Origin: a virus
Virus record (IMG/VR): IMGVR_UViG_3300006046_000004
Span: 1 to 40,642 of that record
Length of the DNA stretch: 40,642 bases
Direction: 5' to 3' (one strand)
The stretch's first letter is position 1. Each line of letters starts with the position of its first letter. Below, piece by piece: positions 13,023-18,681 of the stretch. Made by a program: the position numbers and the translations under genes. The notes under the pieces are model-generated. The model did not search any database, had not been told where the DNA came from, and was given only the letters and a program-made list of their open reading frames with translations.

Positions 13023-13232
13023 TCACGGGTTATCCTTGGGCTTGTCGAACGACAGCTTCGCGAGCGTGATCGGCGCGGTGCTGCGAGCCCGCAGGAATTT
13101 CCGGGGTATCGCCGCAGGCGCATCGCGATCGTCATACGCCGCCTGCTTGAACGAGCGGCGATGGTTCCCCCAAAGCTGCAGCGGCTTGCTCAGCCGCAGG
13201 TTTGACGGAAACCGGGGCTGGCATTTGCTCAT
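13023..13232 (-). CDS. Small basic protein (69 aa), translationally coupled to the portal gene
   Basis: ATGA overlap with the portal stop (13229-13232). Confidence 0.45.
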   Translation of the reverse strand: MSKCQPRFPSNLRLSKPLQLWGNHRRSFKQAAYDDRDAPAAIPRKFLRARSTAPITLAKLSFDKPKDNP

Positions 13233-15541
13233 GGCGTGAACCCTTTCGGCTGCTGATACGGCTGCGCGGCTTGCTGTGCAGCAGCTTCACCCTGCCGGGC
13301 AATTTCAGAAGCTTGATCGATGGCCATCTGCTGCTGCTGCAATCGGATATCCGCGGCCTTGCCTAACACATCCGCTTGGTGAACAGAGGTTTCGTGCAGT
13401 GCTTTCCTGTGGGCATCGGCAGCTTTAATGGCAGTTTCTCCTTGCCTTTGTTGGAGTTCGGCTAGTTTGAGTTGATGGTCACTGACAATTTTGGCAGTCG
13501 CCTGCTTGTCCTTGAGATCGATCTCTCTTGCTTTAAGTGCCACGTCCGCCTTGTCGCGCTCCGCCTGTCGTGCCGACTTCACTTGTTCTATCTGCAAGGC
13601 CGTTTTCGCTTGCTGTGTCGCAGGGTCGTCGCCCCTCGCCTGCCCGGCCTTGGCCTTGGCGTTCTCGACCAGCTCATCAATCGAGCCATCGAGTGAACGG
13701 CCGACGCGGAACGGCTCCACGGCAAACTTCAAGATGTCGCCGGCGAAACTCGCAGTGCCCGGCTCGGCCGCAACCATCTCCATGAGTTGCTGCAACACCG
13801 GGCTGAGCATCGCGAGAAATTCGGTGTGTTGCTGCTTGCTGGCGTTCTCGTCCGGGATGATGGTTGAGTCGGTCTCGATGTCGAGCACAAACGATTTTGC
13901 CCGATTGTTTTTAAGGAAAGTTAACACCTGCTCGATCGTCGGCTGCGCCTGCACCTTCTGATACTGCGACTGCGCCTGCTGCAAGGCCATCTGCACTTGC
14001 TGCATCTGTTGCGACAATTGGTCGGGCGGCCCCGGCGGCATGCCGGGCTGCTGCACGCTCTGCGCCTGCGGCGATTGCTGCAGCTGCTGCAGCATCATCT
14101 GCGCCCGCTGCACCTGTTGGCCGAGGTCGCGCAACTGCTTCTGTTGCATCGCCTGTGTCGGCAGTTGCGTCTGCGACATCTCGATGATGGTGGTCGCCTT
14201 GAATTTCTCGGTGATGATTTCCGAGGTGATCGCCACGAGGTCGCGCGCGATGCGCGCCATGGCGTACTGCTTGTCGCGCACGCGCGTCGAGCCGTATTGC
14301 GTCTTGAGTTCCTGCGCGCCGAGAGTTTCGGTGGGGTTCGTGGTGCCCCTCATGATATCGGATAACCCCATTATCTGGTAAATGTCGTCAATGACTTGTT
14401 TGCGCAGCGCGACCAACTGCGTGATGCACTCCGCAATCATGTCGATCGGCAGCCACACAATGACTTCTTTCGAACCACCAAACGCCGCCCAATTGCTGAT
14501 CGGCACGAGCAGCCGGCCGGGCGTTTTCATCTTCACGGCGGACTGCACCGCGTCGGAAATCTCGGCCCCGCCCGCGGGATAAAACCCCTTGGCCTCAAGC
14601 GCATCCGACAGCGCATGAATGCGCCCGGTCAGCATGTTCACCTCTTCGAGCTGATCGCGGTACTGCATCATGTCGGGGACGGGGACGAGGCTACCGCGCT
14701 GAGTGGTCCCGTACACCGGCTGCGGGCAGGGGAAATAGCAATCCAAATCCAGGTGCGGGTCGTCCTCGTCGAGGATGTCCTCGCAGCCCTCGGCCACCCA
14801 AACGACACGCCGCGAGGTCTTGTCCCAAATCTCCCAGAACTTCGCCCGCTCGCGGTTGTCGGCGCCGCCAATGCTCTGCGCGTCCTTGTCCACGCGGTAC
14901 TCGGCCTCCTGGTAGCTGTCGCCCGAGTGCGGCTCGAAGCGATCGCGCGCCTCCGATCGCGTCAGGTAGCTGGCCGCCGCCACCCAGGTGACCTCGTACC
15001 AGCAGCGCGAGATGCTGTGCAGGAAATCGCGCCTATGCTTGTAGTCCACACAGACGCGCTCGCTCTTGTTGTAATAGCCGTCGCCGCCGCCACTCTCGTA
15101 ACGGCACCACGCCACGCCGCGACCCGATAGAGCCAGATCGTCCCGCAGTTGCAACATGACATCGTTGATGTACGTCAGGTCGAAGCTGACAATCGCGCAG
15201 CGCTCCATGACCTCGGAAGCTTCCTGGTACACCGGCCTCCGGTCCTTGAATTTCGGCACCACGACCGGGACTGGCGCCCGCGCGTAAATGCTGGGCTTGA
15301 GCACCTCGCAATTGGCCCAGAACATCGCAAACTCGCGCTCGCGCGACATGTTGGCCAACCGCTCCAGGCTCGCATACTGCTTATCGATGTTGTCGCAGTG
15401 GTGGTTCCAGCTCTCGAAGGCCTTCTCGCTCTCGATCAGCAGGTTGAGCCAGGCGCGTGACTTGCGCGGCTCCATCGCGGGATTAAATTCGGCATCGTCG
15501 GTGCGAATATCTTCCTCGACGGGCGGCTTGTCGTCAGCCAT
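13229..15541 (-). CDS. Portal protein (770 aa) with a long Gln-rich C-terminal coiled coil
   Basis: Size, position in the terminase-MTase-portal block, an N-terminal WNHHCDNIDKQY...FWANCEVLKPSIYARAPVPVV motif typical of portal N-termini, and a C-terminal Q-rich helical extension reminiscent of the P22 portal barrel. Confidence 0.75.
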   Translation of the reverse strand: MADDKPPVEEDIRTDDAEFNPAMEPRKSRAWLNLLIESEKAFESWNHHCDNIDKQYASLERLANMSREREFAMFWANCEVLKPSIYARAPVPVVVPKFKDRRPVYQEASEVMERCAIVSFDLTYINDVMLQLRDDLALSGRGVAWCRYESGGGDGYYNKSERVCVDYKHRRDFLHSISRCWYEVTWVAAASYLTRSEARDRFEPHSGDSYQEAEYRVDKDAQSIGGADNRERAKFWEIWDKTSRRVVWVAEGCEDILDEDDPHLDLDCYFPCPQPVYGTTQRGSLVPVPDMMQYRDQLEEVNMLTGRIHALSDALEAKGFYPAGGAEISDAVQSAVKMKTPGRLLVPISNWAAFGGSKEVIVWLPIDMIAECITQLVALRKQVIDDIYQIMGLSDIMRGTTNPTETLGAQELKTQYGSTRVRDKQYAMARIARDLVAITSEIITEKFKATTIIEMSQTQLPTQAMQQKQLRDLGQQVQRAQMMLQQLQQSPQAQSVQQPGMPPGPPDQLSQQMQQVQMALQQAQSQYQKVQAQPTIEQVLTFLKNNRAKSFVLDIETDSTIIPDENASKQQHTEFLAMLSPVLQQLMEMVAAEPGTASFAGDILKFAVEPFRVGRSLDGSIDELVENAKAKAGQARGDDPATQQAKTALQIEQVKSARQAERDKADVALKAREIDLKDKQATAKIVSDHQLKLAELQQRQGETAIKAADAHRKALHETSVHQADVLGKAADIRLQQQQMAIDQASEIARQGEAAAQQAAQPYQQPKGFTP

Positions 15542-15565
15542 GGCATTACCTCGCTCTGCGCTCGG

Positions 15566-15691
15566 TCATTGCGTCACCTGCGCGGCCAGCAGCAGGATCA
15601 GCAGCACGACCGCCACCGCGACCGCAACCACCACCAGCGTGTGCCAGTGCGCCCGCAGCATCGTATGCGAGCGTTCTCGCCAAGGGCTCAT
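15566..15691 (-). CDS. Small single-pass membrane protein (41 aa)
   Basis: [41 protein letters not shown]; ATGA overlap with the MTase stop. Confidence 0.4.
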   Translation of the reverse strand: MSPWRERSHTMLRAHWHTLVVVAVAVAVVLLILLLAAQVTQ

Positions 15692-16581
15692 GGACGCGCC
15701 TCCATCACGGCGGCGATGAACTGCGCCGCGACTTGCGGGACGATGCAGTTCCCGTAGGCGCGCAGCCGTCCCACACGGCCGGCAGTCCGATGAGCCAACG
15801 GGAAAAGGCCGGGTTGAGTTGGCCGCGCCTTTCCGTCGCTGCAGGGGAGCCAGACGAGATCGGACCACGATGAACAACGTGATCGTTCAACCTCATTCCA
15901 CTTGTCTCCGGTCGATTGCGTTTCCAGTTGCTCCCGGCCGATCCAGCCATCTTCAGGTCCGTTGATGCCGGCGTCGGCCAGGAAGCCATCTCCGCCTGTT
16001 GCTCCAGGCCAGGAGGGCTCGACTCGCCGCCCTCGCGAGAGGACCTCATCGCTCGGTCGCTCTTGCGGTTCGATCCCGCCATCGGCGTTTGCCACGAACC
16101 ACACTCGCTGCCGGATGTGCGGCGCGCCGACGCTGTGTGCTCCAAGTACGGCCGCCCCCGTGGCGTAACCCTCCGCTTCCAGGTCTCCGAGAACAGCGTC
16201 GAGCCAGCCCCATCCAACCGCTGCCGCAACCTGCTCGCCAAAGATGATGTCAGGCTTGCACTCGCCGATGAGACGGCGCCAATGCGGCCATAGGTGCCGG
16301 TCGTCCTGGCCACCGCCTCCTTTGCCGGCGGCGCTGAACGGCTGGCAGGGGCAACTGCCTGTCCAAACAGGTCGCGGTCCCCATCCGGCGAGGTCAAGGG
16401 CGTGGTCCCAGCCGGCGATGCCTGCGAACCAATGCACGCGCTCGAACCCTTTGACATCGTCGGGGGAAACATCTGCGATTGATCGGTCATCGATGGTCCC
16501 CGGCGTGATGTGGCCGGCGTCCATCAGGTTGGACAGCCAGTCGCAGCAGTAGCGGTCGATCTCGTTGTAGTAGGCTTTCAC
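15688..16581 (-). CDS. DNA (cytosine-5)-methyltransferase
   Basis: Motif I FAGIAGW, motif [14 protein letters not shown], motif VI FGEQV, motif [12 protein letters not shown] and motif X GNCIVPQV. The GTG start overlaps the stop of the micro-ORF (GTGA). Confidence 0.85.
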
Positions 16582-16640
16582 AGCTGTATGCGTCCCCGCA
16601 TCGGCACATCGTCGGGCGGCGGGATGACGAGGTCACTCAC
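16578..16640 (-). other. 20-codon micro-ORF duplicating the terminase C-terminal tail ([20 protein letters not shown])
   Basis: Hand translation. The TerL C-terminus is SIPPPPEPQRGRIQL*. The shared residues are encoded mostly by different synonymous codons. Confidence 0.5.
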
Positions 16641-16785
16641 TTGCCGACCCTGTTAATTGATGCCGCAAAATGCATCCATAATCCTCACACAACCAGCCGT
16701 CTTCCGCCGCGCGGCAAGGTCCGCCAGTTATCGGGCACATGAACTCCTCGCCTTCCAATTCAAAGCCGGTTTCGTCAGGTTCCAT
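16633..16785 (-). CDS. Small acidic Cys-rich protein (50 aa)
   Basis: Hand translation gives MEPDETGFELEGEEFMCPITGGPCRAAEDGWLCEDYGCILRHQLTGSASE. It lies between the TerL and MTase genes and is below the track size cut-off. Confidence 0.35.
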   Translation of the reverse strand: MEPDETGFELEGEEFMCPITGGPCRAAEDGWLCEDYGCILRHQLTGSASE

Positions 16786-16805
16786 CGCAGTTCAAAGCTC
16801 CATCC

Positions 16806-18164
16806 TCATAACTGAATGCGCCCACGCTGCGGTTCGGGCGGTGGTGGAATGCTAATTCCTTGACGTGGAGGCACCCTGACGGTACGTAGCGGGGCTGGCT
16901 GCCATGCCATACTCAGATACCTAAAACTGTCGGCGAAATCGGTCGCCCAATCCTGGCGCGGCTTCACGCGAAAGCATTTCATGTCGTCGTCCCATTCGCG
17001 CTGGTACTGTTCAAGCGCCGCCAGGCCGCGCTCGCAGCGCGGATCGAACACGCACAGCGGCAGCGTGTGCCGCACCGCGTTGATGCCGTCCTCCACCGAT
17101 GCATCACGCACCAGCATTGGCGCCAGGCCGAGGCTCTTCATCATTTCGACGCGGGTGCGGCCACTGCCAAACTCTAGCACCTTGGCGTCGTGCGGCACGT
17201 AGTCGGTGCCGTGGGTCCAGCCGCGCTCGGCGTAAATCCGCTCAAGCTCGTTGCGGTAATACTCGATACCGGCACCCGATGCCGGCAGGCAGTCGAGCAC
17301 CCGGACTTGCGCGCCCGCTGACTGAAACATCCAGATCACAGTGGAGTGCCGCGTGCCCAGATCCCAGGCCCGATCGACTGGCCGGCCGGCGATCGCCTCG
17401 ATCGGCAGCACGCGGCCCTCGGCCCGCACGGCTGCCATTTCCAGCGCGAAGATACTGCCGAGCACGGCGGCGTTCCACGAGCACATGTACTCCTGATCAA
17501 AGGCAGCTCGTCCCATGTCGGTGCCGTAGAGCGCGATCAGTTCGGCTTTGGCCTCCGCCAGTGCGGCATCCGACAGCGCGCCGGTGTCACGCGCCGTGAG
17601 TACCTGGCTGAACCAATCCTGCGTGCTGGCGGCATGATCGTACATCGCCTTGCAATGGTTATGCCCGCGCGGCGTCGAGATGAATACCGCCCAGCCGTTA
17701 TTCTCCTCCAGGATGGGTTTGAAGAACGCCCACATGCTAGGATTAGATAACGCGTATTCGCTGAAGATAATCCCAGCGGTTGAGGCGCCCACCAGATTAT
17801 CCGAGTCGCTGCCGACCACGCTCCAGGTTGAGCCGTTCACCAGGCGAATCTGCATGGTTTGATCATTGGTATTCGTGCGCAGTTCGAGCGGGAACGCCTC
17901 ATCGATGCGGCGCTTGCCGGTATGCGGATTGACGGCGGTCCATATTGCGCGGCGCCCTTGCGTGTAGAGCGGCAGCACGTGCCAGTAATTCGCCGGCCGC
18001 GTCAGTGCAGCGATCGCGCTGTAATGCAAACAGACCTCGTCCTTGCCGGCGCGCCGGTGCCATATGGCAACCGCGCGCTTGCCGCCACCGCGCAAGTATT
18101 TGTACAGCGCCATCTGGTGCGGTCGTGCGCGCCAGCCGTTGTGCGGGATGAGGATGTCACTCAT
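16806..18164 (-). CDS. terL: Terminase large subunit
   Basis: Walker A-like WHRRAGKDE, Walker B-like AGIIFSEYA, and a C-terminal nuclease-type region (DCLP...VPHD). Size 452 aa; adjacent to a small-terminase-like gene. Confidence 0.85.
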   Translation of the reverse strand: MSDILIPHNGWRARPHQMALYKYLRGGGKRAVAIWHRRAGKDEVCLHYSAIAALTRPANYWHVLPLYTQGRRAIWTAVNPHTGKRRIDEAFPLELRTNTNDQTMQIRLVNGSTWSVVGSDSDNLVGASTAGIIFSEYALSNPSMWAFFKPILEENNGWAVFISTPRGHNHCKAMYDHAASTQDWFSQVLTARDTGALSDAALAEAKAELIALYGTDMGRAAFDQEYMCSWNAAVLGSIFALEMAAVRAEGRVLPIEAIAGRPVDRAWDLGTRHSTVIWMFQSAGAQVRVLDCLPASGAGIEYYRNELERIYAERGWTHGTDYVPHDAKVLEFGSGRTRVEMMKSLGLAPMLVRDASVEDGINAVRHTLPLCVFDPRCERGLAALEQYQREWDDDMKCFRVKPRQDWATDFADSFRYLSMAWQPAPLRTVRVPPRQGISIPPPPEPQRGRIQL

Positions 18165-18393
18165 CGGCGTGGCGGATGATGATGTTGAAGCCAGCGTTGT
18201 TCTCGCCGCTCACGAGCGTCGTCGTCTGTGCCGCCTTACCCCATCCGCGGTCGAGCAGGCTATTGGCTGCAGCCACACGGGACGCCGATGCTTCATCTGG
18301 CCTGCGCATGATGTCGGCGAGCGCGTGAATGCTTTCCTTGGTGTACTGGCGGCACAAGGACGAGATGTCCGGCGGTACTTTCTTGCGCGGCAA
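18157..18393 (-). CDS. Terminase small-subunit-like protein (78 aa, TTG start)
   Basis: AAANSLLDRGWGKAAQ matches the LLDRGxGKP motif common in small terminase subunits. It overlaps the terL start and starts directly after an in-frame TAA. Confidence 0.5.
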   Translation of the reverse strand: MPRKKVPPDISSLCRQYTKESIHALADIMRRPDEASASRVAAANSLLDRGWGKAAQTTTLVSGENNAGFNIIIRHADE

Positions 18394-18552
18394 TTACTTA
18401 AGGGGCACCCCCCCTCCCTGGTTTTGCAGCCGTTCGACCGCGGCGCGCAACTCGGCGACGGTGAGGTCGATCCGCTCGATATGGATCATGACCGCCTCGC
18501 GCAGTTGTCTGATCTCGTGGTCGATCAGCGACACGGTCTTAGCATTGCTCAT
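18394..18552 (-). CDS. Small coiled-coil protein (52 aa from ATG 18552)
   Basis: MSNAKTVSLIDHEIRQLREAV...ELRAAVERLQNQ. It is in the same frame as the downstream TerS-like ORF, separated from it by one TAA. Confidence 0.4.
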   Translation of the reverse strand: MSNAKTVSLIDHEIRQLREAVMIHIERIDLTVAELRAAVERLQNQGGGVPLK

Positions 18553-18588
18553 GCGCGGCAATATTTCACGCCAGGCGTGCGCGTGCAA

Positions 18589-18681
18589 TCACGGCCCCAG
18601 TGCGCCGACCAGCACGAGCCAGAGCGCGAAGGCGACGGTTACTCCGATGATCCAGAGCGGGGTGTGGATTGTCATGATCAT
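18589..18681 (-). CDS. Tiny membrane protein (30 aa)
   Basis: Hand translation gives MIMTIHTPLWIIGVTVAFALWLVLVGALGP. Confidence 0.3.
   Translation of the reverse strand: MIMTIHTPLWIIGVTVAFALWLVLVGALGP

Follow-up and report, generated by a model that had tools for sequence, protein, structure and literature searches.

Duplicated gene ends at mosaic junctions are an already described kind of relic. In mycobacteriophage Island3, gp68 ends in 18 residues that repeat the C terminus of the upstream gp67, a duplication of about 50 bp at a mosaic junction (PMC3029335). The locus described here lies in a 40,642-nucleotide stretch of viral DNA (the window) and resembles the gp67/gp68 case in that about 50 bp, or 16 to 18 codons, of a gene 3′ end are repeated downstream, in that the repeat adjoins a small inserted gene that has few homologs or none, and in that the repeat was found via a close relative without the insertion and is explained by recombination near gene boundaries. 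It differs from Island3 in three respects: the relic is not fused to the inserted gene but stands as its own micro-ORF in the +1 frame, the alleles from which the two copies derive are unlike at most synonymous sites, and the old stop/start overlap was later reused as the insertion point of a methyltransferase gene. Mobile endonuclease ORFs that carry a replacement terminus are a second point of comparison. One such case in the same phage group, an HNH gene at the portal start of the relative L004, likewise has a short copy of a gene end, written in other codons, beside the inserted ORF. In the window, however, the inserted ORF has no nuclease domain, and the whole of terL, together with its TerS-like partner, was exchanged rather than the terminus alone.

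At +1 frameshift sites of the prfB and antizyme type, the P-site tRNA can re-pair in the +1 frame when a slow codon or a stop codon follows, and shifting is stimulated by a downstream structure or by a Shine-Dalgarno-like sequence placed 3 nt ahead of the shift codon; at the prfB site, the Shine-Dalgarno-like element lies 6 nt upstream of the stop. UGA is a weak stop when the next base is C. The locus shares with prfB (CUU UGA C plus an upstream Shine-Dalgarno-like element) a UGA-C stop beyond which the +1 frame is open, but it has no shift-prone P-site codon, no properly spaced stimulator, and no conservation, and its site is a recombination join.

The large terminase (TerL) and the portal are a textbook interacting pair. 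C-terminal arms of large terminases have been implicated in portal docking in phages D6E and T4 (PMC5727402), and the TerL of the window resembles them in that its extreme C terminus, beyond the nuclease domain, is a short conserved segment of basic character. The motif here, G-[WF]-x-IPPP-x-E-x-RRG-I-R-L-COOH, is by comparison unstudied, and its role is judged from its conservation and its covariation with the portal.

Gene layout and the duplicated TerL tail

The genes of the locus lie on the minus strand. A TerS-like ORF of 78 aa (positions 18157 to 18393), whose stop overlaps the TerL start, is followed by TerL (452 aa; 16806 to 18164), an acidic 50-aa ORF with four Cys residues (16633 to 16785), a 20-codon micro-ORF with a GTG start (16578 to 16640), a C5 cytosine methyltransferase (297 aa; 15688 to 16581), a 41-aa transmembrane ORF (15566 to 15691) whose ATG overlaps the methyltransferase stop, and the portal protein (770 aa; 13229 to 15541; phrog_12082, E value of 1.8e-174), which belongs to the backbone. 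TerL has no Pfam match at an E value of ≤0.01, and it matches phrog_2, the terminase large subunit (E value of 4.7e-19; 5,551 homologs), and occupies the conserved place of a large terminase, since terL precedes the portal gene in all 84 relatives surveyed. The TerS-like ORF matches phrog_15261, a PHROG family of unknown function.

The description of the locus in the initial annotation holds in all its parts: the minus-strand TerL, Cys-rich ORF, 20-codon ORF, and methyltransferase are confirmed. The last 14 codons of TerL and its stop (16806 to 16850) read IPPPPEPQRGRIQL followed by the stop, and the micro-ORF spells the same tail with the synonymous codons listed there (att/atc, cca/ccg, cgt/cgg, ggg/gga, att/ata, and tta/ctg). 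Relative to the Cys-rich ORF, which ends in GAG TGA followed by C, the micro-ORF lies in the +1 frame, and its own TGA overlaps the methyltransferase GTG at 16581 (GTGA). In a six-frame translation of the whole window, RGRIQL followed by a stop occurs at two places only, the ends of TerL and of the micro-ORF. As judged from the proteins, the duplication is far beyond chance because the last 16 residues of the micro-ORF are identical (16/16) to the C terminus of P0032, the TerL of L004; the next best of the 120 TerL homologs matches at 9 of the 16 positions.

An assembly artifact was rejected, as ENA, JGI, and Logan contigs, each assembled independently, carry the arrangement at 100% identity, and it is also present in soil runs from at least five studies. 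Other copies of the window's phage are 100% or nearly 100% identical to it, and all contigs found to carry the Cys-rich ORF or the 41-aa membrane ORF belong to this phage, with 100% identity. In contigs from four soil runs covering 15400 to 18600, neither the Cys-rich ORF nor the relic is removed by any joint. The strain X7 differs at one position of the Cys-rich ORF (16652) and nowhere in the relic, so that variation is too sparse for a test of selection.

The micro-ORF as a remnant of a replaced terL

The micro-ORF is almost certainly a 53-base leftover of an older terL end (16578 to 16630), that is, an ordinary recombination scar and not a recoding device. The leftover aligns with positions 2592 to 2644 of L004 at 46 of 53 nt (86.8% identity), encodes 16 residues, and lies exactly where the alignment to L004 places the 3′ end of the L004 terL. 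All seven nucleotide differences are synonymous, as would be expected if they had accumulated while both sequences were working terL ends. The homology to the L004 terL 3′ end begins at TCGTCATC (window position 16630 downwards), and nothing upstream of the start of TCGTCATC aligns to that 3′ end.

Sequence identity to L004 shifts sharply across the locus, with 89 to 96% in the flanks, about 66% in the block between them, and 87% in the relic. The upstream flank (18553 to 18428) is about 96 to 98% identical at the nucleotide level; at about 18428 the alignment breaks into an indel and roughly 65 to 70% similarity. Within the block, the TerS-like ORF is 50% identical in amino acids to a 74-aa L004 ORF at the same position, and the two terL genes are 63% identical in amino acids and about 63 to 66% in nucleotides over their whole length up to the stop; the whole gene, therefore, and not only its tail, was exchanged. 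On the other side, high identity returns (95.5% at 15690 to 15515, and 89% in the portal gene at the nucleotide level). The 41-aa membrane ORF has an L004 counterpart at 2641 to 2766 that differs by one amino acid, with the DNA 95.5% identical.

These alignments show the following history. The lineage of the window earlier carried an L004-type terL whose stop overlapped the GTG of the small membrane ORF just ahead of the portal gene, the arrangement still seen in L004, where this ORF starts at the GTGA of the TerL stop. The resident block was replaced by some 1.8 kb of DNA contributed by a diverged relative (about 18425 to 16631), comprising the TerS-like ORF as its first gene, a terL about 63% identical in protein, and the small, foreign Cys-rich ORF as its last gene. 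The left crossover fell in conserved sequence near 18420 to 18428, within the 3′ end of a 64-aa ORF, and the right join (16630/16631) was illegitimate, 2 to 3 nt past the Cys-rich ORF stop. The last 16 codons of the old terL survived because this join fell 53 nt before its stop. Donor DNA supplies the start GTG and the first three or four codons of the micro-ORF, and the relic supplies the remainder. The 20-codon ORF probably exists only because, at the join, a GTG happens to lie four codons ahead of the relic and in its frame. The +1 offset from the Cys-rich ORF would likewise be an accident of the join, and the peptide itself would be without function; the most that the relic would do is to keep the old stop/start overlap, through which terminating ribosomes can reach the methyltransferase GTG. 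As an ORF, the relic is intact, with zero nonsynonymous changes, which fits a recent event but does not by itself exclude selection on the peptide.

Of the two readings of the duplication in the initial annotation, a recombination scar marking the acquisition of the methyltransferase module from a relative was one. A scar it very probably is, but not in the direction proposed: it represents the phage's own former terL 3′ end, left by the swap of the TerS-like ORF, terL, and Cys-rich ORF. It does not mark the entry of the methyltransferase, which was inserted in a separate event, precisely at the stop of the old TerL.

Separate insertion of the methyltransferase gene

The assignment of the methyltransferase to the C-5 cytosine DNA methyltransferases is clear, with a PF00145 score of 54.6 bits against a curated cut-off of 22 (E value of 1.5e-14) and a match to phrog_363 over residues 1 to 295 (E value of 1.2e-75). 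Comparison of CTGTGA|GCCC in L004 with CTGTGAAAGCC...CCATGA|GCCC in the window shows an insertion that, on this alignment, falls exactly at the old overlap of the TerL stop and the next gene's start (GTGA/ATGA). The wandering methyltransferase ORF entered this GTGA overlap in an event separate from the block swap, so that it now starts at the old GTG and gives the membrane ORF an ATGA overlap. The gene is mobile; its first 66 aa are 91% identical to those of a gene in L036 that lies in an unrelated, replication-module context. A TerL tail upstream of the methyltransferase relatives was found in none of 35 loci from IMG/VR and JGI metagenomes. Among the contigs searched, no intermediate with an L004-type terL directly abutting the methyltransferase was found.

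The Cys-rich ORF and the TerL-portal gap

The Cys-rich ORF is compositionally foreign, with a GC3 of 0.55 against 0.71 to 0.83 in the neighboring genes. It has no Pfam or PHROG match, and its sole homolog among 1.84 billion representatives is P0123, a protein of 61 aa that is 56% identical and keeps all four Cys residues. P0123 sits in an unrelated cluster of small genes, not beside a terminase, and ends without the tail; the gene upstream of it also lacks the tail motif at its end. Three further candidates (P0122, P0124, and P0125) were rejected as homologs, being compositional matches of acidic repeats in repeat proteins. Searches of a protein atlas gave only subthreshold leads, including small viral zinc-finger-like clusters at 0.83. 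No donor lineage, with a terL of >67% identity followed by a homolog of the Cys-rich ORF, was found among the sequences searched; the TerL search in GTDB genomes returned no relatives, and the exact junction 25-mer is absent from IMG/VR.

In the 84 relatives, the gap between TerL and portal ranges from −52 to 1,568 nt and is therefore an insertion hot spot; in one cultured relative, Rhizobium phage RHph_I3_18, the two genes are 9 nt apart. A second tail in this gap is absent from the other members of the group: a motif scan found it in 0 of 67 relatives with a gap of at least 60 nt, with 3 loose motif matches in the reverse-strand control.

The C-terminal arm of TerL

The tail motif appears to be the normal, family-wide C-terminal arm of this TerL family. 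An [I/L]PPP element lies near the TerL end in 113 of 120 homologs, and a basic-Gly-hydrophobic C terminus is present in 111. Among the relatives, similarity of the tail to that of the window follows portal similarity (rho of 0.55) more closely than does similarity of the TerL body (rho of 0.33). The last 36 residues of the incoming TerL are closer to the replaced allele than those of any other of 118 homologs, with only average similarity in the body. As judged only from this conservation and covariation with the portal, the TerL tail probably docks on the portal. The proposal that the tail is a docking-type motif holds for TerL itself; for the second copy it is not supported.

Alternative explanations

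The scar might have been put to use as a coupling leader, in which the micro-ORF is translated by reinitiation at the GTG overlapping the Cys-rich ORF stop (GTGAGTGA) and its termination feeds the methyltransferase start, the relic being kept for methyltransferase expression and not for its peptide. We regard this as rather unlikely. The methyltransferase GTG has a weak Shine-Dalgarno pairing about 12 nt upstream (−5.7 kcal/mol, the 25th percentile of the background), compared with −9.3 and −9.6 for the membrane ORF and the portal; the same GTG in L004 is served by its overlap with the TerL stop, relatives of the methyltransferase found in different settings frequently begin at an ATGA overlap, and the boundaries of the micro-ORF with the Cys-rich ORF and with the methyltransferase are both overlapping stop-start pairs. 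No promoter-like or terminator-like site was found in 15400 to 17000. Against a leader stand the start of the micro-ORF, whose pairing (−4.9 kcal/mol; background median of −3.6) is no better than background, and that of the Cys-rich ORF, itself poorly served by a GGAG 12 nt upstream; moreover, weak direct initiation may suffice for the methyltransferase. The relic may pass ribosomes to the methyltransferase start passively. A selfish cassette, in which the Cys-rich ORF inserted itself into the terL 3′ end and brought a recoded copy of the tail to keep TerL working, has a precedent in L004, where an HNH_3 gene follows the first seven portal codons and the portal start is duplicated, and the foreign composition of the region would suit it. 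With such a cassette, terL outside its tail would be expected to match the uninvaded L004 allele at about 90% identity, but the value found is 66%, and the TerS-like ORF differs too; this whole-gene divergence, as far as the alignments can tell, largely refutes the idea. The Cys-rich ORF also lacks an HNH, GIY-YIG, or LAGLIDADG family or any other nuclease domain in Pfam or PHROGs, and its sole homolog has neither a terminase beside it nor an upstream gene with the tail motif, which leaves the cassette very unlikely.

The second reading in the initial annotation, that RGRIQL-COOH is a functional peptide presented on two proteins, is highly improbable in the form of a free 20-aa product that binds the portal or TerS and competes or cooperates with TerL. 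The strong conservation of the tail, the docking role proposed for large-terminase arms (PMC5727402), the closer tracking of the portal by the tail than by the TerL body, and the intactness of the relic ORF all speak for it, although the ORF may be intact because the event is recent. The scan of the TerL-portal gaps, the tail-less homolog of the Cys-rich ORF, and the weak ribosome-binding site of the micro-ORF speak against it, the start of the micro-ORF was created by the join, and a free mimic of a docking arm would be more likely to harm packaging. A combined version, in which ribosomes relayed from the Cys-rich ORF translate the relic, the free L004-type arm of 19 to 20 aa binds the portal clip and either tunes packaging or hinders the terminase of coinfecting relatives, and termination drives methyltransferase translation, is scarcely credible. 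The +1 recoding link also suggested in the initial annotation, a programmed frameshift at GAG-TGA-C that would append an 18-residue tail to the Cys-rich protein, has next to no probability. The frames are arranged as needed, but the relation falls where two unrelated DNAs were apparently joined, 2 to 3 nt from the illegitimate join, and one join in three gives such a frame by chance. The features of known +1 sites are missing: the tRNA on the P-site GAG has no way to re-pair with the +1 codon AGU, the AGGG that resembles a Shine-Dalgarno sequence sits 13 nt before the stop, RNA folding at the site is nothing unusual (z of +1.15), the locus has no Rfam match, and conservation of the two frames is lacking in P0123, the only homolog available for comparison, which ends without a tail and lies in another context.

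Implications for packaging module exchange

For annotators, the locus is a warning that micro-ORFs copying gene ends and frames that look like recoding sites can be by-products of a join. As a remnant of a replaced terL, it is a clean, dated example of phage mosaic formation in which a packaging module consisting of a TerS-like ORF and TerL was exchanged between relatives whose TerL proteins are about 63% identical, and the leftover terL end proves which lineage was the recipient. The closeness of the incoming tail to the replaced one and the covariation of the tail with the portal suggest that the IPPP...RRGIRL-COOH arm is what matches TerL to the portal in this large family of soil phage terminases.

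Gene organization of the terminase-portal region

The genes between positions 13229 and 18588 of the window are all encoded on the minus strand. They comprise a 64-aa ORF (18394-18588), a 78-aa TerS-like ORF (18157-18393), TerL (452 aa, 16806-18164; phrog_2), an acidic 50-aa ORF with four Cys residues (Cys-rich ORF, 16633-16785), a 20-codon micro-ORF (16578-16640), a C5-methyltransferase (15688-16581; PF00145, phrog_363), a 41-aa membrane ORF (15566-15691), and the portal (13229-15541; phrog_12082). No Pfam family was detected for TerL or the portal at E ≤ 0.01, and the PHROG profiles alone recognized both; TerL of this abundant phage family has 5551 homologues at E ≤ 0.001. The methyltransferase has a 4-nt stop/start overlap with each neighbour: its GTG with the TGA of the micro-ORF (GTGA), and its TGA with the ATG of the membrane ORF (ATGA). 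The TerL C terminus reads IPPPPEPQRGRIQL, and in a six-frame translation of the whole window, RGRIQL directly before a stop is found at two sites only, in TerL and the micro-ORF. The duplicated tail described in the initial annotation is thus real, and all the synonymous codon differences listed there are correct. Every other contig or run with this arrangement is 100% or almost 100% identical and represents the same phage; its recurrence in soil metagenomes from five or more studies rules out an assembly artifact.

Origin of the second TerL tail

Among 120 TerL homologues, P0032, encoded on the 4-kb contig L004 from a related phage, has a C terminus identical to the last 16 residues of the micro-ORF, while the next best homologue matches at 9 of 16. 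The last 53 nt of the L004 terL share 87% identity with window positions 16630-16578, all seven nucleotide differences are synonymous, and the alignment stops upstream of TCGTCATC (window 16630). L004 is also closely similar to the window in its upstream flank (96%, 18553-18428), its membrane ORF and the start of the portal region (95.5%, 15690-15515), and its portal (89%, 15552-14759), whereas its terL is 66% identical to 17948-16840, with about 63% nucleotide identity maintained up to the window terL stop in a sliding comparison. The TerS-like ORF shares 50% protein identity with its L004 counterpart, and the ORF ahead of it is near-identical to L004 as far as ~18428. The left crossover lies in the 3'-terminal part of the 64-aa ORF (18394-18430), beside a G7 run and a TAA-TTG boundary, and the exchange may also account for the unusual start context of the TerS-like ORF.

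Because the flanks are L004-like while terL and the TerS-like ORF are diverged, the block from ~18425 to 16631 of an L004-type backbone was replaced with DNA from a diverged relative. The second tail is very probably a recombination scar, as one reading in the initial annotation held, since the 53 nt at 16578-16630 are an L004-type terL end (the relic) at the junction of the ~66% block and the 89 to 96% flanks. An L004-type terL end at this position requires a former L004-type terL, which shows that the window lineage was the recipient in the terminase exchange. The right-hand join lies 2 to 3 nt past the Cys-rich ORF stop and 53 nt ahead of the old terL stop, so the micro-ORF is chimeric: donor DNA supplied the start codon GTG and the initial three or four codons, and the relic supplied the remainder. 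Therefore, an illegitimate join placed the relic in the +1 frame relative to the Cys-rich ORF. Gene-end duplicates beside inserted small genes are of a kind already described: in mycobacteriophage Island3, a small gene without homologues has been inserted and the gene upstream of it has its last 18 codons (~50 bp) duplicated, the same pattern, ascribed to recombination near gene boundaries (PMC3029335).

The Cys-rich ORF probably represents a genuine small phage gene that entered with the terminase block. Its region has a GC3 of 0.55, compared with 0.71 to 0.83 in its neighbours. When 1.84 billion representatives were scanned exhaustively with HMMER, a single credible homologue emerged, P0123 (61 aa, 56% identical), which retains all four Cys residues. 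P0123 belongs to a series of small genes that has no terminase close by, and it does not end in the tail motif.

Accessory genes in the TerL-portal gap

L004 reads ...CAGCTGTGA followed directly by GCCCTTGG, with the TerL stop overlapping the GTG of the membrane ORF, and the window reads ...CAGCTGTGAAAGCC...(methyltransferase)...CCATGA followed directly by GCCCTTGG. The methyltransferase ORF was thus inserted exactly into the 4-nt GTGA overlap, with a stop/start overlap retained at both ends. This gene is mobile, and its relatives are spread over many unrelated phages. It also looks mosaic, because its closest relative (L036/L014), which sits in an unrelated replication-type module, is 91% identical over the first 66 residues and 63% over the full length. 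The TerL tail was found upstream of the methyltransferase in none of 35 related loci. In a strain from soil run X7, window positions 16249-16420 of the methyltransferase carry 15 substitutions and two small insertions in almost identical surrounding DNA, which could point to an exchange at this spot or to variability of a target-recognition region.

Across 84 relatives (L001, L003, L004, and L043-L122), the spacing between TerL and portal varies between -52 and 1568 nt, which makes this gap a hot-spot for accessory genes in this very large soil-phage family. In the cultured Rhizobium phage RHph_I3_18, 9 nt separate TerL from portal; L001 and L003 carry inserted ORFs, the first of which overlaps the TerL stop by 4 nt at its start.

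Proposed recoding, coupling, and selfish insertion

The GAG-UGA-C site, where +1 recoding was proposed to link the Cys-rich ORF to the tail, lacks every feature of known +1 sites: it has no shift-prone P-site codon, no RNA structure (z +1.15), and no Rfam match; an AGGG stretch lies 13 nt upstream of the Cys-rich ORF stop. Shine-Dalgarno pairing is near background at the micro-ORF and methyltransferase GTGs (-4.9 and -5.7 kcal/mol) and strong at the membrane ORF and portal (-9.3 and -9.6 kcal/mol). The methyltransferase took over its start from a site that depended on coupling to TerL; with low probability, the relic may still hand on ribosomes arriving via the overlapping Cys-rich ORF stop and micro-ORF start. 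In an alternative model, the second tail would be the replacement gene end of a selfish cassette, as for HNH genes, and this phage group has a further duplicated gene end next to an inserted gene at the L004 portal start. There, a 168-aa HNH_3 endonuclease ORF (L004:2791-3300, near window 15541) opens with the first seven codons of the portal (MADDKPP), and is followed directly by the portal gene, which begins anew with a slightly different start of its own (MADDGKPP). However, this model fails for the window, because no nuclease domain is present in the inserted Cys-rich ORF and the difference from L004 extends over the whole of terL.

Conservation and possible portal matching of the TerL arm

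The initial annotation also envisaged RGRIQL as a docking-type peptide presented on two proteins. A motif scan found a second tail in the window alone and in none of 67 relatives with gaps of at least 60 nt. A docking role of the tail is reasonable for TerL itself, since the C-terminal arms of large terminases, which have conserved basic residues, are implicated in portal docking (PMC5727402). Among the 120 best TerL homologues (58 to 68% identity), 113 have [I/L]PPP among their final 25 residues and 111 a basic-Gly-hydrophobic C terminus, with the consensus G-[WF]-x-IPPP-x-E-x-RRG-I-R-L.

The body of the incoming TerL is ~61% identical to the replaced L004-type allele (rank ~89 of 118), whereas its last 36 residues (16806-16913) are 78% identical and rank first of 118 (median, 47%). 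The DNA of these 36 codons is only ~63% identical to L004, and synonymous sites are saturated. In 63 relatives, which are not independent data points phylogenetically, the similarity of the tail to that of the window follows portal similarity (Spearman rho 0.55) more closely than the similarity of the TerL body does (0.33), and tail and body similarities are uncorrelated (0.01). These sequence comparisons hint that the TerL arm is matched to the portal, the most interesting by-product of the scar analysis. With the tail ranking first, the body ~89th, and the tail tracking the portal, they suggest that the swap was open only to a terminase whose arm was compatible with the portal.
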